From a bacterium (lineage in GTDB: Bacteria > UBP7 > UBA6624 > JBBIMK01), in NCBI GenBank assembly GCA_037444445.1, contig JBBIMK010000007.1, positions 4,592-68,591 on the forward strand: a stretch of 64,000 bases of DNA, given 5' to 3'. Below, piece after piece: positions 6,799-62,291 of this stretch. The stretch's first letter is position 1. Each line of letters opens with the position of its first letter. Below the pieces are notes generated by a model. The model ran no database searches. It saw nothing but the letters and a program-made list of their open reading frames with translations, and was not told the origin of the DNA. Made by a program: the position numbers and the translations under genes.

Positions 6799-7312
6799 CT
6801 CCCACCATAGGATAGAATACTTTCACGGTAATTTCATAAGTGGGGCGCATTTTCCCGCCCGCTACATCCACCACTTCCATTTCCACCAGGTGGTCATCTT
6901 TCTCCAGAAATGACAGAATCTCTATTGCCTTCTGGATGGTCGTTTCTTGAAACAATTTGATTTCTCCTGCCGAGACTTTGAATTTCAATTCTAACGACTG
7001 AAAGGCTTCCTCCCCAAGAAGAACAGGCGCTTTCGCGCCATCCACATTGATTTTGTTTTTTCGGAGGGTGTCCACAAAACGGCTAAAATCCAGTTCTGCA
7101 GTTTCTGGCGAATATTGAACGGGGATGGGTAAACGGCGAACTTTATCCGCATCTTGCCGGAGTTTCTCCACATCAGAGTAAAGCATTTCCACCTGCTGTT
7201 TCAGTTCTTCTTTTCGGTGGGTTTTCGACCGCACATCCATATAGAGAAGAACCATTAAGGCAAGGCCTGCGACAATGACGATTCCCACGAGAACGGGCAA
7301 GAACTGTCTCAC
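6770..7312 (-). CDS. pilO: PilO-like pilus assembly protein
   Basis: 180 aa with a single N-terminal TM helix followed by a coiled coil (EELKQQVEMLYSDVEKLRQ). It sits between the PilM/N and PilP genes, with a 4-nt overlap with the upstream gene. Confidence 0.6.
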   Translation of the reverse strand: MRQFLPVLVGIVIVAGLALMVLLYMDVRSKTHRKEELKQQVEMLYSDVEKLRQDADKVRRLPIPVQYSPETAELDFSRFVDTLRKNKINVDGAKAPVLLGEEAFQSLELKFKVSAGEIKLFQETTIQKAIEILSFLEKDDHLVEMEVVDVAGGKMRPTYEITVKVFYPMVGGEVDEKVTE

Positions 7313-8748
7313 TGGGCACCACCTCCAGCCCGGAAGGATTCTACCCGGAATGAAATCAGGAAGGGCAAGATCACTTCACCTTCCTTAAAAGAGGGATTTT
7401 GTTTGGTGACGGTGAGATGGCTGAAGTAGGGGGAAAGAGCCATTCGGAAACCCATTGCGTTCACCAGTCTCACATTGCGTTCATAAGAAGCATCATGGCT
7501 ACTTCCGTTGAGAGTTCCTGTCCAGCCCTCGGAGTCTCGTTTAATGGTGAGGGATTGCAAGCGAACACCCGGAGGAGCCACCGCCTGGAGTTCTGCAAAA
7601 AACTGGCTCCAAAAGGGTTGCATTTCTTTGGTATGTGTTCGGAGCTTGCCGAAGCCTTCAGCGATGTCCAGAATGGCCGTAAACCCAGTGAGCGAAGCCT
7701 TCTCAGTTTCCAGGCGACTTTTCTCACTTTCTTTCTCCTTGATGAACTCATCTAAGGAGGTGCGGAGAGAGGAGAAATAACTGAAGCCTCCAAAATAAAT
7801 GGCTAAAGCGGCGAAAATCAATGTCCAGGAGAGGGTGAAAGTCAGGCGGCGGCTCCTTTCTTCTTCGAAAGAAGGAATGGCGAAAGAAAGAGAGTAACGA
7901 GGAGGGGTGAGATATAAGCCCACCAAAGAAGGATATTTCGTAAGAATTTCTCTGGGGAAAGGGAGGTCTCGCGTGAAACGCAAGTCTTCAATTTGCACCC
8001 CCAGAACGGCACGCATATGAGCAAGGATATCATCGCTGGGTCGGTCACCGGCTATCACCAGCCGTGTAACTTCCACGCCATGGAACCGCTGACGGAAATA
8101 CAGGAAGGTCTGGAAGATTTCCTGGCTCAGACGGTTCCAGGCGCTGGTATCAGTCCACTCAGCGCCTGGTGCTGCTCCGAGGGCAATTTTGCGAAAGACA
8201 GCCACACCTTCTCCCCGATAAATCACCAGGAAAACCTCGTTTCCACGCACTTCCATAAAAGCAACAGGCTCATCCTTTACGAAATGCCCCAGTTTCTTCA
8301 ACAGGAGGCCCACAGCCAGGGGATAAGTGAGGATAGCGGAGGGGTAAAGGGAAGTGACCTGACGAATTCTACCACCGAGCCACTCCAGGTCGCTGCGGGG
8401 AACTGCCACGAGATGAACCAGGTTCTGCTCGCCTTCTTTTCCCACGATTTGGTACCGGAATACGGGGGGTTTTCCAGCCGTCATTTTTACTGCCTGCTTG
8501 CTGACGATGACATCAAGGGTTTTCCCACGGGCGGGAGGCAGAAGGTTCAAACCGTGGGAGGCTTCCCGAAATGTGGAAACCACCAACACCTTGCGAATCT
8601 GGGAGGGGATGACGGAAGGGTCAAAGGTCTCCGGCGTGTAAGTTTTGGCTTCCACCCGCCGTCCCACTAATAGTAGCCGTATGGATTCCGCTTCCAGTTC
8701 CAGAAGCACCACCGCAGATTCCAAGCCCTTTTTCGCTATTTCCATCAT
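7309..8748 (-). CDS. pilM: type IV pilus assembly protein PilM fused to PilN-like transmembrane/periplasmic domain
   Basis: N-terminal actin-like ATPase fold typical of PilM. The C-terminal ~150 aa carries a TM helix (LSWTLIFAALAIYFGGFSYF) and a PilN-like periplasmic region. First gene of the operon. Confidence 0.7.
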   Translation of the reverse strand: MMEIAKKGLESAVVLLELEAESIRLLLVGRRVEAKTYTPETFDPSVIPSQIRKVLVVSTFREASHGLNLLPPARGKTLDVIVSKQAVKMTAGKPPVFRYQIVGKEGEQNLVHLVAVPRSDLEWLGGRIRQVTSLYPSAILTYPLAVGLLLKKLGHFVKDEPVAFMEVRGNEVFLVIYRGEGVAVFRKIALGAAPGAEWTDTSAWNRLSQEIFQTFLYFRQRFHGVEVTRLVIAGDRPSDDILAHMRAVLGVQIEDLRFTRDLPFPREILTKYPSLVGLYLTPPRYSLSFAIPSFEEERSRRLTFTLSWTLIFAALAIYFGGFSYFSSLRTSLDEFIKEKESEKSRLETEKASLTGFTAILDIAEGFGKLRTHTKEMQPFWSQFFAELQAVAPPGVRLQSLTIKRDSEGWTGTLNGSSHDASYERNVRLVNAMGFRMALSPYFSHLTVTKQNPSFKEGEVILPFLISFRVESFRAGGGAQ

Positions 8749-8869: not shown

Positions 8870-9625
8870 ATGACAGAAAACGGGAAAAGAGTTATAATTG
8901 GAATTGCTATGGGACAGGGGAGAAAAAGTTGTAGTTGTGAAACCTGTGAGGCTCGGGTGCTGAATGTGTTTCACACCCTTCCACCAGAACCCCTGGCGAT
9001 GTTCAACCAGTTTAAGGTGACGAACTTCTATAAAAGGGGGCAGATTATCTTTCATGAAGGAAACCACCCACAGGGGCTTTATTGCATTTTTTCGGGAAAG
9101 GTGAAACTGTATAAAACAGCGGATAATGGGCGTCAGCAAATCGTCCGGATGGCACAGGCAGGAAATATTCTGGGGTATCGCTCTCTCTTCGCCGATGAAC
9201 CCTATCAAGCTACAGCGGAGGCCATGGAAGATTCCAGCATCTGCTTTATAGAAAAAAGAGCCTTCTTTCCTCTCATTTCAAAATATCCTACCCTGGCTAT
9301 GGAAATCATTAAAAAACTGGCAAAGGAACTGGGGCGAGCCGAGGACCGAATCCGAGATCTGGCGTTGAAAACCGCCGACCAGCGACTGGCTGAGCTCCTG
9401 CTAATGTTGAAAGAAACTTACGGGGTTCAGGAACCTGCAGGATGGCGCCTGAATATTTCTCTTTCCCGTCAGGATATAGCCGAGATGATTGGAACAGCGC
9501 CAGAAACCGTTATTCGCCTTCTTGGAGATTTTCGTTCTAAAGGACTCCTGGAATTCAAGGGAAAAGAAATTTACTTATTGGATTCAGACGGGCTACTGGA
9601 TATGGCTGGCATCGAGAGATATTAG
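8870..9625 (+). CDS. Crp/Fnr family transcriptional regulator (cNMP-binding domain + C-terminal HTH), possibly FNR-type with N-terminal Cys cluster
   Basis: cNMP-binding beta-roll (FHEGNHPQGLYCIFSGKVKLYK). C-terminal HTH LSRQDIAEMIGTAPETVIRLL. N-terminal CSCETC Cys cluster. Confidence 0.85.
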   Translation: MTENGKRVIIGIAMGQGRKSCSCETCEARVLNVFHTLPPEPLAMFNQFKVTNFYKRGQIIFHEGNHPQGLYCIFSGKVKLYKTADNGRQQIVRMAQAGNILGYRSLFADEPYQATAEAMEDSSICFIEKRAFFPLISKYPTLAMEIIKKLAKELGRAEDRIRDLALKTADQRLAELLLMLKETYGVQEPAGWRLNISLSRQDIAEMIGTAPETVIRLLGDFRSKGLLEFKGKEIYLLDSDGLLDMAGIERY

Positions 9626-9682: not shown

Positions 9683-11104
9683 CTACGCAGAAGATAGAAT
9701 GTCCTGGATGGCGTTTCTGACGGCTTCAGGGGTTCCCGTCACTTCGTATTGAACGGATTTTCCTTTACCGAAACTACGGAGGAGACCCTTCTGAATCAGG
9801 ATATAAGCCACGAGGTGAATGCGGAAACGGTAGGAGCGTTTCCACCCCAGAGCCTTGACGATGTCAGCGGTGCTAAAAGGTCGGGCTTGCTCTCCGGTGA
9901 ACTTTAACATCTCCTCCGTAACCTGGCGGAATTCATCAACGGAGCAACGCTGTTCGTATATTTTCCCCTGCAAGTCCGAGAGGGTTCGGACGATAAACGA
10001 ACCCCGTCGAAACCAGCCGGTGCCTTTTAAAGGGAGAGAGCCTGGAGCCGGGCGCTTGGACTTTCGGACTTCCTTCCCGGGGACCGGTATCCCTGGAAGG
10101 CCCAGAAATTGGTCTTTCAGCTTTTGCATCGTTTCCAGGACATCAAATAATTTTTTGCCCACTTCCGTCTGAACATTTTCAGCGGCTTTATGAATTTCCG
10201 CCCGAATAACATCTTCCAGCGATTGAAACCACTCTGCAAATTTTTCTGGAGTCACGCTGGGTCCTGACTTTTCCAATCTTTTCATTCTTGAGCCTCCTTC
10301 TACCCAGATTCTTTCTTCCTTCTTCTCTCTCCCCGGGGTTTGAAAAGTGGACCGCCACTTCCGAATTTCTTCCACGAGTTCCGGATGGGACAAAAGGAAG
10401 GGCATCCACCGCCCCGCTCCATTGATATTCATCACATAATCCAGCACATACAACTTAGAATACCGGACGATGGAGTTTTCCTGCAGGTAGATTTCCCCTC
10501 TGGGACGGGTAATAAATTGAAGACGTGGAAAGGCAGAAAAAGACTCCGGGTGTTCCACCTGGGTATGAGGATATGTGACATGATTGGGATGAATGTTGAG
10601 GGATTCCAGCTCCTTTTGTGTGAGGGCACACGGAAGACTCATTCCCAGTTCACGCCGAGAAACACCGAGGAAGGATTCCACCGCTTCCACGGGAAAGAGA
10701 AGGCGCCCATTGGTTTCCTGTGCTGAAATCCAGTTCGCAGAATGCCACTGATGAACCAGGGACTCTTCTGCCTTCAAAAAACTTGCCAGGGTTGAAATAT
10801 CCCAAAACATGGGAGGTTCTTCATACGGCGGTTCCTTCTGTTCAATGAGGGTGACCACCGGGATTCCCACGACTTCCAGCGCATCCAGACGATAATGAGA
10901 AAAGAGGAACTGTATTAAATCCCGGGATATAACCTTGCGTAGGGGTTTTTGATGCCCTCTCCGGCGAATCTCTATCACTCGCAAACCTTTGGTGAAAAAA
11001 TATTCCAGATTCTCCATGGTAAATGGCGTTCCTTCTACAATTTCTTCAACCGTATAACTGAGGCCTTCCATTGGCTTCATTTCTAACACTGTCAATTTTA
11101 CCAC
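9683..11104 (-). CDS. hypothetical protein (473 aa) with C-terminal winged-helix-like segment
   Basis: Long ORF with no overlap conflicts. No recognisable catalytic motif. The C-terminus (TADIVKALGW...LVAYILIQKGLLRSFGKGKSVQYEV) resembles a wHTH. Confidence 0.55.
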   Translation of the reverse strand: MVKLTVLEMKPMEGLSYTVEEIVEGTPFTMENLEYFFTKGLRVIEIRRRGHQKPLRKVISRDLIQFLFSHYRLDALEVVGIPVVTLIEQKEPPYEEPPMFWDISTLASFLKAEESLVHQWHSANWISAQETNGRLLFPVEAVESFLGVSRRELGMSLPCALTQKELESLNIHPNHVTYPHTQVEHPESFSAFPRLQFITRPRGEIYLQENSIVRYSKLYVLDYVMNINGAGRWMPFLLSHPELVEEIRKWRSTFQTPGREKKEERIWVEGGSRMKRLEKSGPSVTPEKFAEWFQSLEDVIRAEIHKAAENVQTEVGKKLFDVLETMQKLKDQFLGLPGIPVPGKEVRKSKRPAPGSLPLKGTGWFRRGSFIVRTLSDLQGKIYEQRCSVDEFRQVTEEMLKFTGEQARPFSTADIVKALGWKRSYRFRIHLVAYILIQKGLLRSFGKGKSVQYEVTGTPEAVRNAIQDILSSA

Positions 11105-11191: not shown

Positions 11192-11812
11192 GTGGGGATT
11201 TACGAACATTATAGTGATGAAGAAATTATGGCACTGGTGAAAGGAGGAGAAACGGATGCTTTTGAAGAGATTTATGACCGGTATGAGAAACGGGTTTATA
11301 ATTTTGTGCTTCGCATGGTGCCCACAACTCAGGAAGCAGAAGATGTAACTATGGAGGTATTTCTAAGAGCCTTTGAAGCTGCCCCCCGGTATACCCCTCA
11401 GGCGAAGTTAAAAACCTGGCTTTACCGGATTGCTTTTAACCTTTGCGCCACAGCGGCAAAGCGCCGAAAACCTCTCATTTCTCTGGATAACCCCCTCCGG
11501 TCGCAGGAAGACAGCGAGGAAGAGCTGGAATGGCAAGTTCCGGATGAACATTCAGACCCAGCCGAGGAAGCGGAAAAAGCGGAACTGCGAGAAGCCATCC
11601 AGAAAGCTCTCCAGTCTCTGCCTGTGGACCAGAGAACGGCTATGACCTTGCTGGTGTATGATGATTTTTCTTATGAGGAAATTGCAGAAGCCATGAAATG
11701 TACTGTGATGGCGGTGAAAGCGAAGATTCACCGCGCTCGTCTTCATCTTCGCTCCCTGCTGAAACCGTTCTTGCCAGAATCGTCGGAAGGCGCACAGGAG
11801 GATTTTTTATGA
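11192..11812 (+). CDS. RNA polymerase ECF-type sigma-70 factor
   Basis: Region 2 motif (VYNFVLRMV...EDVTMEVFLRAF...TWLYRIAFNLC). Region 4 HTH (LPVDQRTAMTLLVYDDFSYEEIAEAMKCTVMAVKAKIHRAR). GTG start after an AGGTGG RBS. Confidence 0.85.
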   Translation: MGIYEHYSDEEIMALVKGGETDAFEEIYDRYEKRVYNFVLRMVPTTQEAEDVTMEVFLRAFEAAPRYTPQAKLKTWLYRIAFNLCATAAKRRKPLISLDNPLRSQEDSEEELEWQVPDEHSDPAEEAEKAELREAIQKALQSLPVDQRTAMTLLVYDDFSYEEIAEAMKCTVMAVKAKIHRARLHLRSLLKPFLPESSEGAQEDFL

Positions 11813-12276
11813 ATAAAATTTCCCTGACTTGCAAAAAATTTCAGGGGGATTTTGTTCCTTATCTGATGGGAAAATTAGAGCCCCCAATCTCCCGTCGTCT
11901 GGAGGAACATCTGAGCTGTTGCAAGAATTGTCGCACAGCCTTCAGGGATGAAACAGTATGGTTAAATCTTTTGAAAAATGCAAAGGAGGTGAATCCACCC
12001 CCCCGGCTACGGACCCGGGTAGAAAGAAGATTGCAAAGAATCCAACGGCCTCCTCGTAGAAGAGTTAACCCCTGGGTATGGAAAGGGGGAATGGCTCTGG
12101 TGTTCACCTCTATCTTATTGCTCCTCGTCCGGTTTCCGTGGCGCAAGAGCACTCCTCCCACGGGTCCAGAGCCCACTACAATAGAAAAAGCATTCTTTCT
12201 ACAATTTGACGAGCCAAGCCAGGTGATAGCCACTCTGGTTTCTGAAACGATGGAAGGAGAGGCACCCGATTCGTGA
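11809..12276 (+). CDS. anti-sigma factor, zinc-finger (zf-HC2) type, single-pass membrane
   Basis: Starts at an ATGA overlap with the sigma factor stop. N-terminal H...C...C motif (EEHLSCCKNC). Central TM helix (MALVFTSILLLLV). Classic ECF partner position. Confidence 0.7.
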   Translation: MNKISLTCKKFQGDFVPYLMGKLEPPISRRLEEHLSCCKNCRTAFRDETVWLNLLKNAKEVNPPPRLRTRVERRLQRIQRPPRRRVNPWVWKGGMALVFTSILLLLVRFPWRKSTPPTGPEPTTIEKAFFLQFDEPSQVIATLVSETMEGEAPDS

Positions 12277-13247
12277 GACTTCCAAAATTTTCTGGATTGC
12301 AAAATCTCCTTATTTTTCTCCTGATAGCAGGGGCAGGGTTTCCACATCCCTCTCCGAGAGAATTTTCAAAAAAACCTCCCCTTCCCCACTTCACCGCAGA
12401 AATTCAGATTCAAGAAATCATCGGTGAAAAAAAGACTACCCGTCGGTGGGAGGTCCGGTCGCTGGAACACAAACTCTTGTTAGTCGACCCGCAGGGCACT
12501 CATCCGAGGGTACTGGTAGATTTCCTTTCAAGAAAGTTCGTGCTGATTCATCCGAAAGAAAAAATGGTGATGACGGTGAATCCTCCACCTCTATTTTTAG
12601 AAAAAAATGTGATGTGGATTGGAAGGATTCTGGCGGAAAGAGGGCGTTTCCGCAGTCCACCCCAGGCGGTGAAAAAAAATTTTGAGCAGTTGCAGGATTC
12701 TGACCTGAAAAAAATCACTCTGGGGCGACCACCACACATCACGGAAGTGTGGATAGACCGGGAAACAGGGATACCCGTCAAAATCCATAAGCAATTCCCC
12801 GAGATGAGGAGGGTGACCGTTCAGATATTGCAATACGATTCGGCATCACCCGCGAATCCGGATGATTTTCTGCCTCCTCCAGATTTTCGTCAGGTTGTAG
12901 TCAACGACCTGCGCCTTCCCCAGCATTTAGAATCTTTTTTAGCGTCTCGCCATCTGCCATTTCGTCTGGAAAAAATGGAGGCAAGACGACTTCAACATTT
13001 TCAAATGAAAACAGGAGGCTTGACGAGAATTTTCTATGTATCACCGGATGGAAAAGAATGGGCGGCAGTGGAGGTGCGTCAGAATCGGTGGGATGCACCC
13101 ATCCCCCCCCTGGCATCTCCTCTCCAGCAATTCCGACCCCTCCTCCGTGTCAGAGGGAATGAAGTATTAGAGTTCCGCACCAATATTCCATTCCCTCGCT
13201 CTAACCGTTTGTTAACCATCTTTGAGGGATTTATCCCTGTCCGGTGA
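12273..13247 (+). CDS. hypothetical secreted protein co-transcribed with ECF sigma/anti-sigma (possible LolA-like/DUF4367-type partner)
   Basis: GTGA overlap with the anti-sigma stop. N-terminal signal-like hydrophobic segment (LLIFLLIAGAGF). No catalytic motif. Confidence 0.55.
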   Translation: MRLPKFSGLQNLLIFLLIAGAGFPHPSPREFSKKPPLPHFTAEIQIQEIIGEKKTTRRWEVRSLEHKLLLVDPQGTHPRVLVDFLSRKFVLIHPKEKMVMTVNPPPLFLEKNVMWIGRILAERGRFRSPPQAVKKNFEQLQDSDLKKITLGRPPHITEVWIDRETGIPVKIHKQFPEMRRVTVQILQYDSASPANPDDFLPPPDFRQVVVNDLRLPQHLESFLASRHLPFRLEKMEARRLQHFQMKTGGLTRIFYVSPDGKEWAAVEVRQNRWDAPIPPLASPLQQFRPLLRVRGNEVLEFRTNIPFPRSNRLLTIFEGFIPVR

Positions 13248-13674
13248 ATTTCGTTTTAGCGCTGGAGAGTTTTACCTGCGCTTTTTGTTGCAAGTCCTGA
13301 AACTCTTTGGCTTTGGCTATATTCTTCATATTGATGGCATCATAGAGAGCATCCACGGCTTGCAATAATAAGTCTACCCCCTCTTCCAGGTCCTGTCGGG
13401 CGGATTGCAGGCTACCAGGAGCGCCAGTGGCTTTGACCTCAGCCTGCACCCGAGACAAAATGCTTTTGGCCTGGGTCAATTTGGGCAGGTTCTCGTCGCT
13501 AAACGCAGGATTTAAAACGCTGGCAGGATTGGCCTGGGCGGCCTCCGCCACCTGGCGAATTAAGTCTCCTGCCTTCATGATGTTTTCCCCCCACTTTTTC
13601 GCTTTTAACTTGTAGCCCAGCGTGCAACCGCCCAGGAAAAGAATGGCAATCATCCAGAGAAAAAGCGTTTTCAT
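13231..13674 (-). CDS. hypothetical all-alpha lipoprotein
   Basis: Internal start MKTLFLWMIAILFLGGC gives a lipobox (LGGC) signal peptide and is preceded by a GGAGG RBS. The mature part is helical and Ala/Gln/Lys-rich. It contains no His, so it is not a b562-type heme protein. Confidence 0.5.
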   Translation of the reverse strand: MKTLFLWMIAILFLGGCTLGYKLKAKKWGENIMKAGDLIRQVAEAAQANPASVLNPAFSDENLPKLTQAKSILSRVQAEVKATGAPGSLQSARQDLEEGVDLLLQAVDALYDAINMKNIAKAKEFQDLQQKAQVKLSSAKTKFTGQG

Positions 13675-13794: not shown

Positions 13795-15747
13795 TTAAGT
13801 AGGGGAGAGAGAACGAACCACTTTCAGATAATAGCGGAGGAATAGAAAACCACTGACTGTCAGTAGCGCCCCTTGCGCCAGAAGAGTTTCCAGGGTCGGA
13901 TATAAGCCCAGCAAACCGATTGTGGGAAATCCTTTCAGGAATGTAACTCCTACCCATCCCATATCCTGCAACTCCTGTATACCCTTTCCAATGAAAGAAA
14001 AAGACAATGAATAGAGAAAAAGACTGGTCAGAGAAAAAAATAGACGGAGAGATAATTTGAGCATAAAACGATAAAAAAGAATACCCACAGAGAAAAGAAA
14101 GAGCAATCCGAGGAACAATCCAAACAAAAGGGAAGAAAAATTATGAGAATAAAAAAATAGCGACTGATAGAAGAGGATGGTTTCCAGGCCTTCGCGATAA
14201 ATGGCGAGGAAAGCCACAGAAGCCAGCGCCCACCGGCTCCCTTTTCCCAGTGCCAGCTGAACCTGATGCTGGATATACTTTTGCCAGTTCTGAGCCAGAG
14301 AGTGAGAAATTAACCAGAAGGAAACGGTAAAAAGAACGGCTGCTGCCAGAAGAAGAGTAAAACCTTCCAGCCCTTCCTGATAATTTTTCAGAGTCGCATA
14401 CACAGTTTGAGCCAGCAGGGCTGTCAGGCCGGTCAATACGAGCCCTGTCCCGGCTCCGACAAAAACCTCCCGATAAAATTTTTCCTGGCGGATTCGCTTT
14501 AAGTAAGCCAGAATGGCAACGAGAATTAAAAAGGCTTCTAAACCTTCACGAAAGAGGATCAGGAAAGATTGAAAAATTACCCACCGGGGAGACAGTTTCT
14601 CCTGCATCTGGGCGGCGAATTGCTCCAGTGCTGAAATCCACTTCTCGGCAGCAGAATGGAAAGAATTCGGCTCGTTCACTGCGGATTGAAGTTGATGAAA
14701 CAACGATTCTAATTTCCGGGTGGCAGACGGGTCAGGGCCTTTCAACAGGACTTCGTTTTGCTCAAATTCCATATAGAGGTCATGAAGCAGGGAAGAAGCC
14801 CCCTTGAAATCACCCTTGTCCACTTTCTGTTGAGCCTCCCTGAGAATTTTTATCCATTTTCCCCGGGAAGATAAGAGAATATCCTGAACAGAGGATGTGG
14901 ATGGCAAAAGAAAGGGGTGTAGAATTATCCATTGAGCCAGGACGACGCGTTGAGATTCAGGAACTTTCACTTCTGCAAGGCTCCGGGTAAGATTTTCAAT
15001 GCTTTTCGAGAGAAGGGCTTCGGGAGGGAAAGATTTCCAGCCCGGGGGCAAGAACCGTCCAGCCCATCGCCCTTTCTTCAGCATTGTTTTTTCTTCCGCC
15101 TCCATCAAAAAAAGAGAGAAGACCACAGACCACCGCTCCGTCTCTGATAGAGAGTCAGCGAACGAAGGCATAGGAGTCCCTGAGACGCCCTCCGATATGA
15201 GGGTAAATAATTGCATCGGACTCTTATTCTGAAGAAAAGAAAGGGAAAATAAATTCGGCGGATGGAAGTCGCCTATTTCCGAAGAAGGAGGCCCGTGACA
15301 GGATTTGCAATTATCCGCATAGACTCGTGCTCCCAGGGAAACACTCACTCCCGAAGGCAATCGCCATTCCAGAGGTCCCACATGCTTCTCAAGTAACCGT
15401 TGAAGGGAATTCACCGTATGCTCAACCTGTGGGATAGATGAGCGAGATTCTAATTCTTTTTGCAAGGTCTGAAATCCTTCCGAAAGAGAGGCATAAAAAG
15501 AAAGCTCAAGGGCTATCTCCCTGGCTTTTTGAAAAAATTCAAGGCTCTCCAGGTACTCCTCCTCCCGAGAATCTGGAGAGCCTTGAATGGAAAGGAAGTA
15601 TTCATCGCGAACCAACGAGAGGAGGCGTGCCGTGCGCTGAGCCAGATTCACATTGTCCCGGTTTTTCTCTCCAGCAACTTCTGAGATACCCGAAACGAGG
15701 AAAAGAGTGAGAATAGAGAAAACATAGAAAACTTGCCTTTTGCTCAC
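13795..15747 (-). CDS. cytochrome c - FTR1 fusion: periplasmic monoheme class I cytochrome c domain fused to FTR1/EfeU-type high-affinity iron permease
   Basis: Signal peptide. Single CxxCH (NCKSCHG) with a downstream Met ligand region (GTPMPSF). The C-terminal 7-TM domain carries two REGLE motifs (FREGLEAF and YREGLETI) diagnostic of FTR1 permeases. Confidence 0.8.
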   Translation of the reverse strand: MSKRQVFYVFSILTLFLVSGISEVAGEKNRDNVNLAQRTARLLSLVRDEYFLSIQGSPDSREEEYLESLEFFQKAREIALELSFYASLSEGFQTLQKELESRSSIPQVEHTVNSLQRLLEKHVGPLEWRLPSGVSVSLGARVYADNCKSCHGPPSSEIGDFHPPNLFSLSFLQNKSPMQLFTLISEGVSGTPMPSFADSLSETERWSVVFSLFLMEAEEKTMLKKGRWAGRFLPPGWKSFPPEALLSKSIENLTRSLAEVKVPESQRVVLAQWIILHPFLLPSTSSVQDILLSSRGKWIKILREAQQKVDKGDFKGASSLLHDLYMEFEQNEVLLKGPDPSATRKLESLFHQLQSAVNEPNSFHSAAEKWISALEQFAAQMQEKLSPRWVIFQSFLILFREGLEAFLILVAILAYLKRIRQEKFYREVFVGAGTGLVLTGLTALLAQTVYATLKNYQEGLEGFTLLLAAAVLFTVSFWLISHSLAQNWQKYIQHQVQLALGKGSRWALASVAFLAIYREGLETILFYQSLFFYSHNFSSLLFGLFLGLLFLFSVGILFYRFMLKLSLRLFFSLTSLFLYSLSFSFIGKGIQELQDMGWVGVTFLKGFPTIGLLGLYPTLETLLAQGALLTVSGFLFLRYYLKVVRSLSPT

Positions 15748-15888
15748 CTCTCCATCACCTTGAATAGTGTTTAATTTATAACAGCATCTGTCAAGTTAAC
15801 AGGAATGGTTATTAAATGACTGAATCCCGTATCAAGACAAGGATAAATTGCAGAGGAAGAAAAGTGAGATGAAGGAGATGAAGAAGAA

Positions 15889-15961
15889 TGCCGGGGCCCA
15901 GAATCGAACTGGGGACCCATGGATTTTCAGTCCACGGCTCTACCGACTGAGCTACCCCGGC
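15889..15961 (-). tRNA. tRNA-Phe (anticodon GAA)
   Basis: The reverse complement reads GCCGGGGTAGCTCAGTCGGTAGAGCCGTGGACTGAAAATCCATGGGTCCCCAGTTCGATTCTGGGCCCCGGCA. The cloverleaf has a 7-bp acceptor stem, D-arm GCTC/GAGC, an anticodon loop CTGAAAA and a T-loop TTCGATT. The 3' CCA is not encoded. Confidence 0.9.
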
Positions 15962-16034
15962 ATCGGTTTGCTACACTCTATTGTAGTGTGGAATCTGAAA
16001 AACTTCAAGCCACAATGGGGTGCCCATTGCAAGT

Positions 16035-42618: not shown

Positions 42619-45600
42619 ATGGACACGGATTTGGACATCTATGGGTTGTGGCGGGAAGAGAAACGAGATGTAACGGTGGTATTTGCTGATTTATCTGGAT
42701 ATTCCGAGATGACAAGCCGGATGGATGTAGAAGATTTAGCCATGGCATTGAAAGAGACCCATCTGGAGTTATCGGCGATTAGCCATCGCTACGGGGGAAT
42801 GGTCGCAAAGATTATTGGCGATTGTTTAATGGCTTTATACGGGGCTCCCATTTCAAAAGGGGATGAAATTTTACGCGGAATTTTCGCTGCGCTGGAAATG
42901 AAGCAATGGGTTGAAACCCGATGGGGAAAAAAGCAAAAACCCACAGGTATTAAATTTGGTATCAATCATGGGGTCGTCTTCACTGCTTCTCTGAAGGCGG
43001 GTCCCCTCACCGATTTCACCGTATTAGGAGAGGCCGTGAACCTCGCCCATCAACTTCAAGAAATTGCCTCGCCGGGCCAAATCCTCATCCCGGAAACTCT
43101 GGTCAGTAAAGTAGAATCCACTTTTCAAGTCCACTATTGGAAATATATTACCCAGAAGGGAACCGGAAAAAGGGTTCGGGTATATGAAATCGCGGGAATA
43201 AAAAGAGGAGCAGACCAATTTCCTGTTCAGCCTCTCATCGGAAAAAAAATTGAACTCGGTTTTTGCGAATCCATTTTGATGAAAAGCCAGAAGGGAAAGG
43301 GGCAAGTCATCGGGATTCTGGGTGGTGAAGGAACCGGGAAAAGGGTGCTGGCTTCCCATGTGATGAATTCTGCGCGAAAAGCAGGCTTCCGCACCAGCGG
43401 TGTGACAGGCTATCCCTTCCGCAAGACCCTCCCTTTCTGGACCATCTCACAACTTCTGTCAGGGCTTCTGGATGTGCCCACCTTGCAGACGAGCCTTACC
43501 CAGGATGAATATAACCAGGTGTGTAAGGTGGCTTCCCGGACTGAATCCTCTCCTCCAGAACTGCAAGTAAATGCTGAACACAAAGGCATGCTTTTCACAC
43601 TCTCCAAAAAAACCTTGATAATAGTTGCCGGGGACAAACCACTATTTTTAGTGGTCTCAGGCTACCACAACACGGATTCCCTCTCACAAGAATTTCTTAA
43701 CTTTTTCAGTTACAGCCTGCCAAACCTGCCCATCTGCCTCCTGCTGACCTATCAGTCAGGAGTAGAAATCCCTTTTCGTGGCAAAGAATTCTTTTCGGAA
43801 ATAACACTGCGAAACTGGGAGCAAAACGAAGTGATGGAAGCCATAAGGGTTTTCCTCCCGGGCGAGGAACCGAAAGAAGCCTTTGCAACAAAAGTTATGA
43901 GGTTAACCAACGGGAACCCTTCAATGATAAGAAATTTTCTGAGTCAAATGCGTCAGTTTGACCTGAAGATAGAGGAGGTCATGGAAAAAGCAGAAAGCCT
44001 GGACCCGGAGTGGTTGAATGCTACCACGAGACTGGATGAATTATCCCAGAATGCTCGGGAAGTTCTGAACGCCGCCTCGGTGTTACCTCAGGAGTTTTCT
44101 TACCGCTTTCTCCAGAGCATACTTCCGCAAACGCTGGATTTGAGTCAGGTGTTATTAGAACTGTTAGAAAAGGATTTTTTGAAAGAGACTCGTTTTTCAC
44201 CGGAACTTTGTTATTCTTTTCAAAACCAGGCGGTCAAGCGATTCGTGGAAAGCAGGTTATTGAAACATCAACTGAAGACACTTCATCTGGAGTCAGCAAA
44301 AGCGTTACTCAAATTATATCCCGAGAACCTGGAGGACCACTATTACGAGATAGCCTGTCACTATAAAAAGGCTGATGAGCCCGCAAAAGCCATAGAATAT
44401 TTCATAGAGGCTGCAGAGGTAGCCCGGAAAAAATTTGCCATTCGGGAAGCGAAAGAATTGTTTGCCTCCGCCCATTCAGTTCTTAAAACCTCCCGTATCT
44501 CCATTTCCTATTCTCTCCAGAGCCTGTTGTATAGCGGGTGTGCAGAAGTAGATAGAATTCTGGGAAACTTCAAAGAATCCAATGAAGATTACCAGACCCT
44601 CAGAAAACTGGCGCGAGAAAATGGGGACTCTTTCAATGAAATCCGGGCACTTTTGAAGTTAGGGGATAATTTCATGGACAAAGGAGACCTCCCATTGGCG
44701 GAGACGCTTTTTCAACAGGCTGCCGATGCTTGTGGCGAGTCTGACTTCCCTTCCCTCCGTGCCTATGCCCTCACGAAAATCGGTCGGGTACGCTATATGA
44801 AAGGGTTGAAAGAAGGAGTCAAAGACCTCCTTCTGAAGGGTTTAGAACTGGCGACAGGGGCAAACGACCGCCAAACGGAAGCCATGGCTCTGAATTATCT
44901 GGGGCTATATCAGCGCCGTTTTGAATCTGCCGAAGAGGCTTTGCGCACCTTTGAACAGGCCTACCGCATCTATGAAGAAATGCATCACCCCCGAGGCATG
45001 GCAAATACTCTCCTGAATATCGGCATCGCTTATGAACATATTGGTGACCTGGAAAAAGATATGGAAGTCAACCAGAAAGCCTTGAAAATCTCTGAAGACA
45101 TCGGAGATTTGTATACCATCGCTTCCTCATCCCATAATGTCGGCGTGATTCTACTGGATTCTGGAAAGCCCCGGGAGGCTCTTCCCTATCTACTGAAAAG
45201 CCTGGAGATTCAAAAATCTATGGAAGATGTGCTTTCCCAATCCCTTACCCTGTCCAACATAGGTTACTGCTATTATCAGTTAGGAGAACTGGAAAAGGCA
45301 ACCCGAGCACATTCTGAAGGAATAGGACTGGCACGACAGGGAGGCTCTGCCTATTTCGCTCTGGATAATCAAATTGGACTTGCAGATGCCTACACAGCCG
45401 TCGGTCTATACGAAAAGGCAGAAAAAAAACTGGATGAAACTCTGAAAGAGGCTCAAAACCTTCAACAGGTGTTACTCTCTCTTAAGTCCATCCTCTCTCT
45501 GGCAGTATGCCTGATTCTCCAGGGCAAATGGGAAAAGGCAGAAACATTCTTGAATGAGAGAAAAGAGGACTTTGAGTTACAGGTTGAAAAAAAAGACTTG

Positions 45601-45990
45601 ATGTTATACACCCTGTTGAAATCTATTCTTTTTTATGAATATCATCAGAACTCTGAAGAAAGCCGACAGTGGCTTCAACGAGCCTCTCAACTTTCCAAAG
45701 AATCTCAGATTGGATACACACAATGCCAGGCAGGGATTCTCCAGTTTCTATATTTTGAAGAGAACACAATACCACAGGTGAACGCTCTGATAGAGCGGGG
45801 AGAATTCGCTCTGCTGAAGTTAGAAAAACTCACCGCAGAAGTTCAGGTGGCAAAGAGAAAAGAGAAAACTGAACAATACTTTCACCTCCTGCAGGAAGCG
45901 AAATATCTTCTCTACTCCCTCGCAAACAAGATAGAAAATCCCGGCTGGCGGGAAACTTTCATTACTACCCGGTTACGGCGCCTGGAATAA
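42619..45990 (+). CDS. class III adenylate/guanylate cyclase domain fused to STAND/AAA-type NTPase and C-terminal TPR repeats
   Basis: N-terminal CHD domain (VVFADLSGYS...IGDCLMALYGAP). Central P-loop GILGGEGTGKR. The C-terminal ~600 aa carries repeated TPR-like helices. 1123 aa. Confidence 0.85.
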   Translation: MDTDLDIYGLWREEKRDVTVVFADLSGYSEMTSRMDVEDLAMALKETHLELSAISHRYGGMVAKIIGDCLMALYGAPISKGDEILRGIFAALEMKQWVETRWGKKQKPTGIKFGINHGVVFTASLKAGPLTDFTVLGEAVNLAHQLQEIASPGQILIPETLVSKVESTFQVHYWKYITQKGTGKRVRVYEIAGIKRGADQFPVQPLIGKKIELGFCESILMKSQKGKGQVIGILGGEGTGKRVLASHVMNSARKAGFRTSGVTGYPFRKTLPFWTISQLLSGLLDVPTLQTSLTQDEYNQVCKVASRTESSPPELQVNAEHKGMLFTLSKKTLIIVAGDKPLFLVVSGYHNTDSLSQEFLNFFSYSLPNLPICLLLTYQSGVEIPFRGKEFFSEITLRNWEQNEVMEAIRVFLPGEEPKEAFATKVMRLTNGNPSMIRNFLSQMRQFDLKIEEVMEKAESLDPEWLNATTRLDELSQNAREVLNAASVLPQEFSYRFLQSILPQTLDLSQVLLELLEKDFLKETRFSPELCYSFQNQAVKRFVESRLLKHQLKTLHLESAKALLKLYPENLEDHYYEIACHYKKADEPAKAIEYFIEAAEVARKKFAIREAKELFASAHSVLKTSRISISYSLQSLLYSGCAEVDRILGNFKESNEDYQTLRKLARENGDSFNEIRALLKLGDNFMDKGDLPLAETLFQQAADACGESDFPSLRAYALTKIGRVRYMKGLKEGVKDLLLKGLELATGANDRQTEAMALNYLGLYQRRFESAEEALRTFEQAYRIYEEMHHPRGMANTLLNIGIAYEHIGDLEKDMEVNQKALKISEDIGDLYTIASSSHNVGVILLDSGKPREALPYLLKSLEIQKSMEDVLSQSLTLSNIGYCYYQLGELEKATRAHSEGIGLARQGGSAYFALDNQIGLADAYTAVGLYEKAEKKLDETLKEAQNLQQVLLSLKSILSLAVCLILQGKWEKAETFLNERKEDFELQVEKKDLMLYTLLKSILFYEYHQNSEESRQWLQRASQLSKESQIGYTQCQAGILQFLYFEENTIPQVNALIERGEFALLKLEKLTAEVQVAKRKEKTEQYFHLLQEAKYLLYSLANKIENPGWRETFITTRLRRLE

Positions 45991-57970: not shown

Positions 57971-59395
57971 TCAGGGAACCCCCAGGGCATCCAACTGCTG
58001 GTTAGCCACCAGAAGCAGGTAGCGAGCATATTTGGCGTTGTGGACCCCAAAGGAGCCGTCGTGCTCCACATAATAATAGTTATAACGGGCACGCTTTATC
58101 TGAATGGGAATCAGGTCCTGGCCTGTGGCTCCAGAAGAGGGACCACCGTATGATGAATATTCCCAGGAAAGAGCCCCTTTTCCTTGAATATTCGCCTGCA
58201 CTCCCCAGGCATCCAGGCGGTTTTTCAAGGTGGCGAGTTTGGCTTCTATGTCGCTTTTCGTATTCAGCATTCTGGCGGCGGCGTCGCTGATGCTGTGGCA
58301 GGGAGAACATCCCTCCAGCCGAATCCTGAAGGTGTGTCCTGTAATTGCCGGGTTGTCCTCACTTTCATATTCCTTCATAGAAACATGGCAGGTGGCACAC
58401 TGCCTGGGAGTGAAGCGATGTTCGGAAAGCGCCGGGGAACCCCCGTCTTCCACACCCCCCAGCCCCAGGAGAAAGTCCAATTGAACTGAGTAGTGCGCAG
58501 CGCGAGAAGTATTCATCGCCAGGCCTGCATCTGTCGGGTCGGCGCCCCGCCGGTTGTGGCACTGCCCGCATACCTGGTCTATCCGACTATACACATTGAT
58601 GTCTGTGGAATCTCCACCCTGATAGGGGTCTTGCTCCGGGTCCCAGTATTCTTTATGCCTTAACTGGGCTTCTTCACCTTCTGCGGCATTATTCCCGGTA
58701 GCCTTGTGAGGGTCGTGGCAAACCGCACAGGTTTGAGCCGTCATCTCTTCCCTGGTCTTACCCACTAAATTCGGTGAGGCAAGGGCGTTTTCCATGACCA
58801 TCACCCGGTAATCACCCGAGTGGCAGGGACCGCAGGAAACGAGTCGTGCCGGGCCATTCACAGGGTCCGCTAAATATCCAGCCACATGCTCGGTAACTTT
58901 CGTGTGAGAGCTAACTTCCCACTCATCGTAGGTGGGATGATGAGCATCCGTGTGGCATTTCCCGCAAAGACTTGCGGCGAGAATCCCGGGATAGGTGAGA
59001 ATTTTCGTCTTATCCCCACCAGAACTCACATGTTGCTCTCCAGGCCCGTGGCAGTTCTCACATTGGACACCCCCCAGCCCCGGGGTAGATGTGGCATCTT
59101 TGAAACCGGACTCAAACCCATATCCCAGAGTGTGGCATGACAGGCATTCTGAATTCGTGCCGAATCCGATTTGCTGTAGACTCGTCAGTGCCTGAGAATG
59201 CCTGGTGGTCTGCACTTCATCGTAGATAGTTTGGTGGCAGTTTTTGCAGGTGTCCGCACCCACATACCTTCCCCCGCTGGGTAGTGGCAGTGTGGGACCT
59301 GTCGTTACTCCACCCTGATTACAGGTGACCACCGTGAAAACTGCCAGAATCACCAGCATCCACATACTTCCACTCACCCTCCATCTCATACCCAA
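57971..59395 (-). CDS. nonaheme c-type cytochrome (multiheme), secreted/membrane-anchored
   Basis: N-terminal hydrophobic signal. Nine CxxCH motifs: CKNCH, CLSCH, CENCH, CGKCH, CGPCH, CAVCH, CGQCH, CATCH and CSPCH. Last gene of the cytochrome operon. Confidence 0.85.
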   Translation of the reverse strand: MGMRWRVSGSMWMLVILAVFTVVTCNQGGVTTGPTLPLPSGGRYVGADTCKNCHQTIYDEVQTTRHSQALTSLQQIGFGTNSECLSCHTLGYGFESGFKDATSTPGLGGVQCENCHGPGEQHVSSGGDKTKILTYPGILAASLCGKCHTDAHHPTYDEWEVSSHTKVTEHVAGYLADPVNGPARLVSCGPCHSGDYRVMVMENALASPNLVGKTREEMTAQTCAVCHDPHKATGNNAAEGEEAQLRHKEYWDPEQDPYQGGDSTDINVYSRIDQVCGQCHNRRGADPTDAGLAMNTSRAAHYSVQLDFLLGLGGVEDGGSPALSEHRFTPRQCATCHVSMKEYESEDNPAITGHTFRIRLEGCSPCHSISDAAARMLNTKSDIEAKLATLKNRLDAWGVQANIQGKGALSWEYSSYGGPSSGATGQDLIPIQIKRARYNYYYVEHDGSFGVHNAKYARYLLLVANQQLDALGVP

Positions 59396-59431
59396 CTATC
59401 CCTCCTTTATCATTTTGGTTTCTTTGAAGTT

Positions 59432-60649
59432 TTATTGCCCTCCTGACCAGTCCAGCCCCTGTTTGTTGGGATTCTTGTGAATATCGTAGGTCACATCATC
59501 ATCCGTTCCAGCCATTTGCTGTTTTGTCTTGCTCATATGGCATCGCTTGCAGGAATAATCCAGGGTTAAATAACCAATCCCTGCCGTGAGGACAACCCGG
59601 TCCGGTTCATCCGTTCCACCGATATCATTCGGGTCATCTTCCAGAAAGGCACGGTCGGGGTCCATAGAAATGGCAAACAGGTGAGTTTTCACATCCCCCA
59701 CGAGAGTATTGGTATCTCCCACAGCGCTCTTCGTGGCCTGTGCCATATGGCAATCATTGCAAGTCACCCCAGCCCGAGCCATAGTGCTGGAAGAGAATGT
59801 TGTGGCTACATCCTTATGGCACTCTTCGCAGGTCACGCGAATGGATTCGCTGGATTTTCTGTGAGGGTCGTGGCAGGTGATGCATTCCATCCGGGCATTC
59901 TGGTAGTGACGAGTAGCAATATATTCGTTATATTGCTCGTGATGGGCAATGAAGGGAGCCTTCGCCAGAATCGTAGTAGGGAAGGGGCTGGAGGTTTTCC
60001 TCACACCCCGATAATGGCAGTCTCCGCAAAGGTCAGAACTCTGAAACTTCGGGAGGCTTTCACGGAAATTGACATGACGAGAGCCTCCTCCACCATGGCA
60101 TCTTTCACACTGGATGCCTTCAAACACCCATGTGCCCGAGATTCCCGGTAGCTCGCCCTGGTGGCCATCAGAAGAGAACCCCGTCGTATGGCAGGAGCCA
60201 CAATTATACTTCTTCGTCCCACAGGGATTGCTTGTATACTTCACGAAACTGCCGGTTGCAAAGTTATATTGTGCTCCATCTCCAGTGAGAATATACCCGT
60301 TCTTGTCCACATACCGCGCCTTCCAGCGATACCCTCCAATCACATAACTGATGTCGTTCCAGTTCGTAGGAGAGCAGACACTTTGTGCTGGAAAAGGAAT
60401 TTCAGGCAAGCCATAAAAGGGTGCTTCAATCGCTAAGGATGTAGTGCGTAATTTCCAGGGATGTCCGCTTCTGAGAAAACTATCGTAAATGTCCAGGTGA
60501 CATCTGCCACAGACTGGAGAGCCGACAAACTCCGCAGGACCCAGAGCCTCTTCGGATATCACCTTCTGTAAACTCTTCCCGCAGGAAGCCAGCCCTGCAA
60601 GGAAGAAAACCACTACAAGGAAATGCCTGATTCCTTCTTTCACTTTCAT
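59432..60649 (-). CDS. octaheme c-type cytochrome lipoprotein (candidate outer-surface cytochrome)
   Basis: Lipobox LASC signal peptide. Eight CxxCH motifs: CGRCH, CGSCH, CERCH, CGDCH, CITCH, CEECH, CNDCH and CKRCH. Starts 12 nt after the barrel gene. Confidence 0.85.
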   Translation of the reverse strand: MKVKEGIRHFLVVVFFLAGLASCGKSLQKVISEEALGPAEFVGSPVCGRCHLDIYDSFLRSGHPWKLRTTSLAIEAPFYGLPEIPFPAQSVCSPTNWNDISYVIGGYRWKARYVDKNGYILTGDGAQYNFATGSFVKYTSNPCGTKKYNCGSCHTTGFSSDGHQGELPGISGTWVFEGIQCERCHGGGGSRHVNFRESLPKFQSSDLCGDCHYRGVRKTSSPFPTTILAKAPFIAHHEQYNEYIATRHYQNARMECITCHDPHRKSSESIRVTCEECHKDVATTFSSSTMARAGVTCNDCHMAQATKSAVGDTNTLVGDVKTHLFAISMDPDRAFLEDDPNDIGGTDEPDRVVLTAGIGYLTLDYSCKRCHMSKTKQQMAGTDDDVTYDIHKNPNKQGLDWSGGQ

Positions 60650-60661
60650 CCTCTATCCCTC

Positions 60662-62281: not shown

Positions 62282-62291
62282 TCTTCACCCC

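Follow-up and report, generated by a model that had tools for sequence, protein, structure and literature searches.

FTR1-type iron permeases are believed to depend on an oxidase partner, and the hand-off of metal is poorly understood in structural terms. In Ftr1p/Fet3p (yeast), EfeUOB (E. coli and B. subtilis) and FtrABCD (Bordetella and Brucella), the partners are separate proteins encoded beside the permease: Fet3, EfeO (cupredoxin/M75), EfeB (a DyP peroxidase), P19 and FtrB. We analyzed a 64,000-nucleotide stretch of DNA (the window) containing a gene for a homologous permease core (PF03239, seven transmembrane segments, two REXXE motifs) from which the same logic is expected, that is, oxidation of Fe(II) outside coupled to permeation of Fe(III). 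In contrast to these systems, the window protein has a c-type heme domain fused to the permease, and no such partner gene is its neighbor.

Two other proteins bear on the comparison. cFTR1 (Slr0964) of Synechocystis sp. PCC 6803 reportedly imports iron as Fe(III), once Fe(II) has been re-oxidized (Xu et al. 2016, as cited in bioRxiv 10.1101/2021.11.08.467730; PMC7676907). In the part of that literature cited here, the "c" stands for cyanobacterial, and cFTR1 is a plasma-membrane iron permease of the FTR1 family that has REXXE motifs and works without a dedicated multicopper-oxidase partner; we liken it to the window protein by description only. PbrT (WP_008645747.1) of Cupriavidus metallidurans CH34, encoded by pbrTRABCD on pMOL30, has been described as importing Pb(II) (PMC5191153). 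PbrT has the same colinear architecture as the window protein (642 aa versus 650) and has all of the conserved heme, Tyr/Glu and REXXE residues in common with it. We know of no tests of the role of the heme in the cytochrome c/FTR1 family, to which both proteins belong.

Cytochrome c and FTR1 domains of the permease

We found that Pfam models for both halves of the protein scored above their cut-offs: Cytochrome_CBB3 (PF13442; 5.4e-9, 36.7 bits against a cut-off of 27, aa 138-209) and FTR1 (PF03239; 4.1e-30, 105.5 bits against a cut-off of 25.3). The order of domains is signal peptide, four-helix bundle, cytochrome c, variable linker, second four-helix bundle and 7-TM FTR1 permease (Table 1). 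The AF2 model has a pTM of 0.52, and the packing of these domains against each other is uncertain. The signal peptide shows a hydropathy peak at aa 6-24, and AF2 placed a helix at residues 3-19 with a linker of low confidence behind it; comparable hydrophobic segments are present at the N termini of homologues. The periplasmic part comprises ~365 residues, with residues 26-390 predicted to lie outside.

Table 1. Features of the permease gene, its product and adjacent genes (positions in the window).
Feature	Position	Strand	Basis or remark
tRNA-Phe	15888..15962	-	
Permease gene, 650-aa cytochrome c/FTR1 family	13795..15747	-	GTG start, stop codon included; ORF list, Pfam and NCBIfam matches, full-length BLASTP to PbrT
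Signal peptide, about aa 1-26 (MSKRQ, hydrophobic core, EVA/GE; slash, predicted cleavage)	15670..15747	-	Hydropathy, AF2
N-terminal periplasmic four-helix bundle, aa 30-123	15379..15660	-	E64 and E67 invariant, Y50 near-invariant
Class-I monoheme cytochrome c domain, aa 136-212	15112..15342	-	PF13442, PDB profile matches, Foldseek
Heme-attachment motif C147-K-S-C150-H151	15295..15309	-	Invariant in homologues
Met193 (GTPMPSF), predicted distal heme ligand	15169..15171	-	Invariant in 33 and in 75 homologues
Linker of short helices, aa 216-276	14920..15102	-	Lower AF2 pLDDT; low conservation
Membrane-proximal periplasmic four-helix bundle, aa 287-384	14596..14889	-	AF2 helices and conservation
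FTR1-type 7-TM permease domain, aa 387-645	13813..14589	-	PF03239, hydropathy, positive-inside loops, AF2 helices
REGLE motif 1 (TM1), R400-E404	14536..14550	-	R400, E401 and E404 invariant
Third ExxE motif (periplasmic start of TM3), Q457-E458-G-L-E461-G	14362..14379	-	Family consensus RExxEG
REGLE motif 2 (TM4), R518-E522	14182..14196	-	Y517, R518, E519 and E522 invariant
147-aa lipoprotein, four-helix bundle, adjacent gene	13231..13674	-	Start and lipobox from alignment with two homologues

The cytochrome c domain is a genuine His/Met class-I heme domain, as predicted from sequence and fold. The two cysteines of its NCKSCHG motif (aa 146-152), C147 and C150, are the only cysteines of the protein. 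They do not vary, and neither do H151 and M193, in 33 homologues or among the 75 proteins of related loci, a mostly independent set that counts the window protein as one of its members. A profile of the family matched cytochromes c in the PDB (best match 6h5l_B, 9.5e-34), and Foldseek matched the domain to cytochrome c6 with a TM score of about 0.7.

Topology was predicted from hydropathy and charge. Six segments of the permease domain were above the hydropathy threshold; the charged TM4, which carries the second REGLE motif, was below it and was placed from the AF2 helices and the position of the motif. Loops 414-427, 482-506 and 560-568 and the C-terminal tail are positively charged. This pattern indicates an N-out/C-in topology, which puts the heme domain in the periplasm. 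Each REGLE motif falls within a predicted transmembrane helix and is invariant in the homologues (75/75). In the third ExxE motif, E461 is invariant, position 458 is E in 73/75 and position 457 is R in 57/75 but Q in the window protein. Matches to the EfeU equivalog model NF041756 (120.4 bits; cut-off 255) and to TIGR00145 (128 bits; cut-off 303.8) covered aa 392-600 and were below cut-off, and, in contrast to EfeU of EfeUOB, the window protein has no efeO or efeB gene adjacent. Sequence and fold searches of the PDB found no FTR1 structure.

These results agree with the original prediction, which had described a single 650-aa reading frame encoding a signal peptide, a periplasmic class-I monoheme cytochrome c and a 7-TM FTR1 permease with two REGLE motifs. 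It had also considered that the CxxCH might lie in a cytoplasmic loop or occur by chance in a non-heme fold. Both possibilities are hardly credible: the signal peptide and the N-out topology place the motif outside, the Pfam, PDB-profile and fold matches are all to cytochromes c, and C147, C150, H151 and M193 do not vary.

Family relatives and conserved periplasmic residues

We found that fusions of this kind are common, although the original prediction had implied that they are rare. BLASTP aligned the window protein (aa 12-625) to PbrT of pMOL30 with 31% identity over 639 aligned positions (E 5e-57). NCBI/PGAP names the homologues "cytochrome c/FTR1 family iron permease", and tblastn matches to annotated members of that family span 80-98% of the query. 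A profile of the periplasmic part alone found 1,698 protein clusters (50% identity) at E<=1e-30. In species-representative genomes, at least 585 of 600 pattern-matching stretches examined were relatives confirmed by tblastn, some of them possibly FTR1-only. About 35 protein clusters had the same architecture. Judged by its sequence, the window protein is divergent but otherwise ordinary within a PbrT-type bacterial family that is large and already has a name, and it lies outside the proteobacterial clade to which PbrT belongs. All that the window contributes is a divergent sequence of an uncultured and deep-branching lineage, and knowledge of the family is unchanged. For GlmS, the best relatives carrying a name ("MAG: bacterium" and "bacterium JZ-2024 1") had 57-64% identity, and those from Thermodesulfobacteriota and Thermodesulfovibrionales about 52%.

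Both periplasmic four-helix bundles, which flank the heme domain, are conserved; they had gone unnoticed in the original prediction. The helices of the second bundle in the AF2 model are 287-310, 314-336, 340-355 and 360-384, the last of which runs on into TM1. Five Glu and two Tyr residues of the two bundles are kept across at least eight phyla. Five of the seven are invariant, among them Y325, E332 and E347 in the second bundle, and two are near-invariant: Y50 (Y in 70/75, F in 5/75) and E329 (E in 74/75). The window protein has all seven (Y50, E64, E67, Y325, E329, E332 and E347). Two actinobacterial proteins of the FTR1-only kind, P0039 and P0049, also have the motif of the membrane-proximal bundle.

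Judging from helix positions, these hard-ligand residues probably cluster at one tip of each bundle (Y50/E64/E67 and Y325/E329/E332/E347). The order of the AF2 helices suggests that the second cluster is at the membrane-proximal end of the bundle that is continuous with TM1. The clusters look like metal-relay sites and are putative ones. Comparison of the two bundles by hhalign gave a hint of an internal duplication, with a probability of 10%, a pairwise E of 0.003 and helices 2-4 aligned. No relation of the bundles to the M75/imelysin fold of EfeO was detectable.

The window protein departs from the family at less conserved sites. R354 and R457 are replaced by Q, D44-Y45 is replaced by S-L, and nine residues are deleted directly after the CxxCH. 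Because of these changes, the window protein may be functionally shifted.

Gene neighborhood and possible role of the heme

The permease gene is in a chromosomal-looking housekeeping context. Its neighbors in the window are tRNA-Phe, an NAD synthase gene, a spermidine synthase-like gene, an orphan lipoprotein gene and an ECF sigma operon; the window also carries a cluster of multiheme cytochromes. Domain scans of the neighboring genes and of all but two of the window ORFs that reach 200 aa detected no EfeO, EfeB, P19 or multicopper oxidase. This bears out the original prediction that P19-, EfeO- or EfeB-like partners are not adjacent. Its interpretation stands for the architecture, the periplasmic heme, the REGLE motifs and the absence of such neighbors, and falls on the implied rarity.

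We compared neighborhoods among related loci (87 loci clustered, with neighbors tabulated for the 75 that were full-length). No neighbor family was common to the 75 loci. Genes for MerR regulators, P-type ATPases and CDF exporters adjoin many proteobacterial homologues and were confined to the clade that holds PbrT. PbrT itself is on a conjugative plasmid, adjacent to a Cd/Pb-responsive MerR regulator (annotated cadR/pbrR), a P-type ATPase and lspA. In contrast, no MerR, P-type ATPase, CDF or other metal-resistance gene was seen near the window permease gene. One distant homologue is flanked by Fur and Nramp genes.

Because the 75 loci share no neighbor family and no oxidase partner domains were seen, we suggest that the window protein is self-contained. 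We consider it fairly probable that it is an iron uptake permease in which the heme oxidizes bound Fe(II) and Fe(III) is handed to the pore. Fe(II) would bind at periplasmic carboxylate/tyrosinate sites and would be oxidized by the covalently attached heme c, which would take the role that Fet3, EfeO/EfeB or FtrB has for other FTR1 permeases. Fe(III) would then leave the membrane-proximal bundle, reach the ExxE and REGLE residues and traverse the pore. Once reduced, the heme would be re-oxidized by a periplasmic acceptor, for example O2, a terminal oxidase or a respiratory cytochrome. Substitution of the heme for a separate ferroxidase is a reasonable reading and the one that we prefer.

As far as the architecture alone goes, electrons could flow either way. 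Respiratory electrons might instead pass through the heme domain to chelated Fe(III), reducing it in the periplasm, and the permease would carry Fe(II). The original prediction had offered this as an option, in the form of direct delivery of reduced iron. E. coli EfeU reportedly moves Fe(II) in proteoliposomes, which counts for such a route, and the multiheme cytochrome cluster in the window makes periplasmic electron donors plausible. We nevertheless think this direction unlikely. The potential of a His/Met class-I cytochrome c is usually about +200 to +350 mV, which as a matter of general knowledge is usually too high to reduce Fe(III) chelates. Fe(III) is stabilized by Tyr and Glu ligands, and the conserved periplasmic Tyr and Glu residues therefore favor Fe(III). 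The high potential and the Tyr/Glu ligands together favor oxidation of Fe(II) over reduction of Fe(III). In addition, Fet3/Ftr1, EfeUOB, FtrABCD and cFTR1 are all described as oxidation-coupled (PMC4460010, PMC7676907). A heme that exchanges no electrons with the metal, for example one that gates the permease by sensing redox state or O2, or one with a structural function, seems very unlikely. FTR1-only relatives have the membrane-proximal bundle and no cytochrome, indicating that the permease core can exist without heme. However, the heme ligands are conserved family-wide together with the flanking Tyr/Glu clusters, and redox partners accompany other FTR1 permeases, as paired proteins or as fused domains, an example being an EfeU-cupredoxin-M75 fusion (P0066). 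Both observations argue for a catalytic redox role.

The substrate might also be something other than iron. Pb(II) needs no redox step, and in an importer of Pb(II) or of another non-redox divalent metal the heme would be irrelevant to the substrate. The full-length homology to PbrT, the description of PbrT as the lead-uptake component of pbrTRABCD (PMC5191153), and the MerR, P-type ATPase and CDF neighbors of so many proteobacterial homologues are in keeping with such a function. PbrT is also the only same-architecture homologue confirmed here that has a published phenotype, and its description as a Pb(II) uptake protein counts against the iron model (PMC5191153). We regard Pb(II) import by the window protein as quite unlikely, since only one proteobacterial clade has the metal-resistance context, and the window protein falls outside that clade and has no such genes nearby. 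The homologue between Fur and Nramp genes and the reported import of Fe(III) by cFTR1 likewise point to iron over lead. A heme site that is invariant family-wide is hard to reconcile with a redox-inert substrate, and the REXXE motifs are, in the work cited, those that serve iron permeation in Ftr1p (Severance et al. 2004, cited in PMC4460010).

More tentatively, the proposal can be extended to the whole family, the window protein included. Its members would possibly be copper-independent, single-chain counterparts of Fet3-Ftr1, in which Tyr/Glu bundles flanking heme c act as a built-in ferroxidase, the electron goes to the respiratory chain, Fe(III) goes to the REXXE pore, and Pb(II) uptake by PbrT is a side activity. 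The divergent window copy (R354Q, R457Q and the shortened cytochrome loop), with its lipoprotein neighbor, could be a variant of the ferroxidase mechanism. The cytochrome c/FTR1 family has a putative redox center, putative relay sites and a pore in one chain. This design, and the abundance of the family in phyla of soil and sediment, make it convenient for studying copper-free, oxidation-coupled iron permeation.

Downstream lipoprotein, tRNA gene and flanking sequence

The gene immediately downstream encodes a lipoprotein that had been predicted to be all-alpha and free of histidine. We found that it lacks histidine and that AF2 models it as a four-helix bundle (pLDDT 86), with fold matches to generic four-helix bundles. 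Its true start is an internal ATG at 13674, and its lipobox is LGG/C (slash, cleavage before the Cys). Only two homologues, with 94% and 80% identity, were found among 5.8 billion proteins. The lipoprotein gene is also beside the permease gene in a relative with 83% identity (L001); the other 73 full-length related loci lack it. Profile comparison of the lipoprotein with either bundle of the permease detected no similarity. We therefore rejected the lipoprotein as a conserved partner of the family; it may have a lineage-specific role.

No Fur box was recognizable upstream of the permease gene, which counts against the iron model; the best match (11/19 positions) was at chance level and is uninformative for an unclassified lineage. 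There is a perfect TTGACA at 15789-15794 without a well-spaced -10 element, and the scan found no terminator between the permease and lipoprotein genes. The numbers of promoter and terminator sites were not above those in shuffled sequence.

The tRNA gene noted beside the permease gene in the original prediction is tRNA-Phe. We considered a genomic island at this site and rejected it: GC content is flat (~0.45-0.50), no integrase is present, and the same synteny is found in the 83% relative. The order tRNA, permease, lipoprotein is repeated in that relative, and the adjacency to tRNA-Phe is plain synteny that carries no weight as a clue.

Domain architecture of the permease

We found that the window ORF of the original prediction is real, with exact coordinates, and that its proposed architecture, a cytochrome c domain joined to an FTR1 permease with two REGLE motifs, was borne out by Pfam, motif positions and hydropathy with AlphaFold2. 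FTR1 (PF03239) was matched at E 4.1e-30 (105.5 bits against a cut-off of 25.3) and a class-I cytochrome c domain (PF13442) at residues 138-209 (E 5.4e-9). Residues 392-600 matched NCBIfam EfeU/Ftr1 models, far under the equivalog cut-offs. REGLE occurs at 400-404 and 518-522; TM1, TM3 and TM4 each carry an ExxE-type motif. The only two cysteines both lie within C147-K-S-C150-H151, and GTPMPSF contains Met193.

The haem fold is genuine. In addition to the Pfam match, the family profile matched solved cytochromes c (best 6h5l_B, E 9.5e-34), and the AlphaFold2 model superposed on cytochrome c6 structures (TM ~0.7). The haem domain, of the His/Met type, is also predicted to be periplasmic, as had been proposed. 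Kyte-Doolittle analysis gave six membrane segments over threshold, besides a signal-type segment at the N terminus; TM4, with the charged second REGLE, fell under the threshold and was placed from AlphaFold2 helices. Three loops are rich in Lys/Arg (414-427, 482-506 and 560-568) and the C-terminal tail is also positive, indicating an N-out/C-in topology in which residues ~26-390, including the haem domain, would be periplasmic.

An alignment of 33 full-length homologues (A1), and an AlphaFold2 model built from it (pLDDT 78.4, pTM 0.52), delimited the parts of the protein (see table). We re-checked conservation in 75 proteins of related loci, which come from at least eight phyla, are mostly independent of A1 and include the window protein. 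Invariant (75/75) in the periplasmic bundles and haem domain were E64, E67, F71, C147, C150, H151, G187, T191, M193, W206, Y325, E332 and E347, and in the permease domain R400, E401, E404, E461, Y517, R518, E519 and E522. Near-invariant were Y50 (Tyr in 70/75), E329 (Glu in 74/75) and E458 (Glu in 73/75). By helix order, Y50, E64 and E67 would lie at one tip of bundle 1, and Y325, E329, E332 and E347 probably lie at the membrane-proximal tip of bundle 2. The window copy has non-consensus residues at D44-Y45 (S-L), R354 (Q, the sole Q among 75) and R457 (Q), and a 9-residue deletion straight after CxxCH (aa 152-161), where model confidence is low. A relative whose permease is 83% identical (locus L001) likewise differs from the consensus.

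Features of the permease and its window
Feature	Position	Strand	Basis or remark
Cytochrome c/FTR1 permease gene	13795..15747	-	ORF list; GTG start, 650 aa
Four-helix bundle 1	aa 30-123		A1 + AlphaFold2
Cytochrome c domain	aa 136-212		A1 + AlphaFold2
Short-helix linker, poorly conserved	aa 216-276		A1 + AlphaFold2
Four-helix bundle 2	aa 287-384		A1 + AlphaFold2; last helix runs on into TM1
7-TM permease	aa 387-645		A1 + AlphaFold2
tRNA-Phe	140 bp upstream of permease gene	same as permease	
NAD synthase; spermidine synthase-like gene			other neighbours of permease gene
Orphan lipoprotein, 147 aa	13231-13674	-	120 bp downstream; internal ATG is true start; lipobox LGG/C
ECF sigma factor, zf-HC2 anti-sigma factor, 324-aa protein without family match	11192-13247	+	apparent operon, convergent with lipoprotein gene
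Multihaem c-type cytochrome gene cluster	57971-63167	-	Pfam

Family size and named relatives

The original prediction implied that such fusions are rare; this did not hold. A first homology search gave ~35 clusters that share both Pfam domains, measure 630-690 aa and are ~30% identical. At least 585 relatives, some of them possibly FTR1-only, were confirmed among 600 pattern-matching stretches examined in a one-genome-per-species scan, and the best 80 of these came from Gemmatimonadales, Binatia, Thermodesulfobacteriota, Nitrospinota, Burkholderiales, Sphingomonadales and other groups. When just the periplasmic part was used as a profile (A2), 1,698 clusters (50% identity) matched at E<=1e-30 among 1.84 billion representatives; lengths in the best 150 were mostly 620-690 aa. 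With tblastn, 926 plasmid records were matched, mostly by partial, FTR1-only alignments, and query coverage was at least 80% in 38. NCBI already annotates the best-covering records as 'cytochrome c/FTR1 family iron permease'.

One matched plasmid was pMOL30 of Cupriavidus metallidurans CH34, where the gene adjoins a Cd/Pb-responsive MerR regulator, a P-type ATPase and lspA. Judged by these neighbours, the match is PbrT (WP_008645747.1), described as the lead-uptake component of the pbr locus (PMC5191153). The window protein aligned with PbrT over residues 12-625 (31% identity, E 5e-57). The window permease is a divergent addition to a large family that already has a name and in which at least PbrT has been studied. 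Passages citing Xu et al. 2016 (in 10.1101/2021.11.08.467730 and PMC7676907) describe the cyanobacterial FTR1-family permease cFTR1 (Slr0964) as taking up Fe(III) via reduction and re-oxidation without a multicopper oxidase; there the 'c' stands for cyanobacterial.

Genes around the permease

As originally noted, no P19/EfeO/EfeB-like partners are adjacent: Pfam scans of the neighbour genes and of 47 of the 49 window ORFs of at least 200 aa did not detect a domain of the EfeO, EfeB, P19 or multicopper-oxidase kind. We recognized no Fur box for the permease gene and found no link between it and the ECF sigma operon. The lipoprotein was rejected as a family partner. It is confidently predicted to be a four-helix bundle of generic type (pLDDT 86), shows no profile similarity to the permease's bundles, and is a lineage-restricted orphan: among 5.8 billion proteins just two homologues, 94% and 80% identical, were found. 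It adjoins the permease gene in the 83% relative too; this sole close relative keeps the order tRNA-permease-lipoprotein. With GC content also flat around the gene, there was no sign of a mobile island.

Neighbour ORFs were called at 87 loci and grouped into clusters, and immediate neighbours were tabulated for 75 full-length family members. No family is conserved beside the permease among these 75. In Proteobacteria, by our reading of representative sequences, genes for MerR regulators, heavy-metal P-type ATPases and CDF exporters recur beside the permease; one or more of these PbrT-type neighbours occur at loci L040, L041, L050, L051, L057, L062, L065, L067, L072, L077, L080, L082, L085 and L088. 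In a neighbor-joining tree, metal-resistance neighbours were restricted to the PbrT-containing clade, and the window protein and its 83% relative formed their own long branch, nearer Gemmatimonadota/Nitrospinota sequences. At one acidobacterial-type locus, Fur and Nramp genes lie near the permease.

Elsewhere in the window, the multihaem cluster encodes a protein of 474 aa that has c7/c554 motifs and a region resembling MtrC/MtrF domain II/IV, a multihaem protein of 405 aa and a protein of 291 aa containing three paired-CXXCH repeats; a 539-aa ORF (60662-62281, -) also belongs to it. The cluster could be a module for electron transfer in the periplasm or outside the cell, and its presence leads us to expect c-type cytochrome maturation in the source bacterium. 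This bacterium is uncultured and deep-branching; the best named relatives of its GlmS, all from unclassified MAGs, share only 57-64% identity. The 539-aa ORF and two other large ORFs, 9683-11104 (-, 473 aa) and 7309-8748 (-, 479 aa), had no significant Pfam match. The window also encodes a 1123-aa protein in which an adenylate/guanylate cyclase is joined to a long TPR/MalT-like region (42619-45990, +), as well as a regulator of the Crp/FNR family whose N terminus is Cys-rich (8870-9625, +).

Possible roles of the haem domain

We slightly favor the notion that the window permease is a self-contained iron importer whose haem oxidizes Fe(II). Fe(II) would bind the periplasmic Tyr/Glu sites and be oxidized by haem c, the part taken by Fet3, EfeO/EfeB or FtrB in other FTR1 systems. 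The membrane-proximal bundle would then hand Fe(III) on to the REGLE pore, and a periplasmic acceptor would re-oxidize the haem. Class-I cytochromes of the His/Met type have high potentials, and Fe(III) is stabilized by Tyr/Glu ligands; from this established chemistry, electrons should flow toward the haem. The functional reading in the original prediction is plausible.

The haem domain might instead act as a reductase and provide the permease with Fe(II), which we regard as unlikely. The substrate could also be Pb(II) or another divalent metal, as described for PbrT, but both the window gene context and the invariant redox centre speak against this, and we consider it quite improbable. A purely regulatory role for the haem seems slightly more doubtful still.

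The bundle-2 motif (A/G)YLD(G/H)FExxE is also found in 420-440-aa actinobacterial FTR1 proteins without a cytochrome domain, and in homologue P0066 the permease forms the N-terminal part of an EfeU-cupredoxin-M75 (EfeO-like) fusion. Fusions of FTR1 permeases to periplasmic redox or metal-binding modules thus recur. Four FTR1-only homologues from Actinobacteria/Firmicutes (P0039, P0049, P0035 and P0054) carry this bundle motif or repeated similar helical modules.
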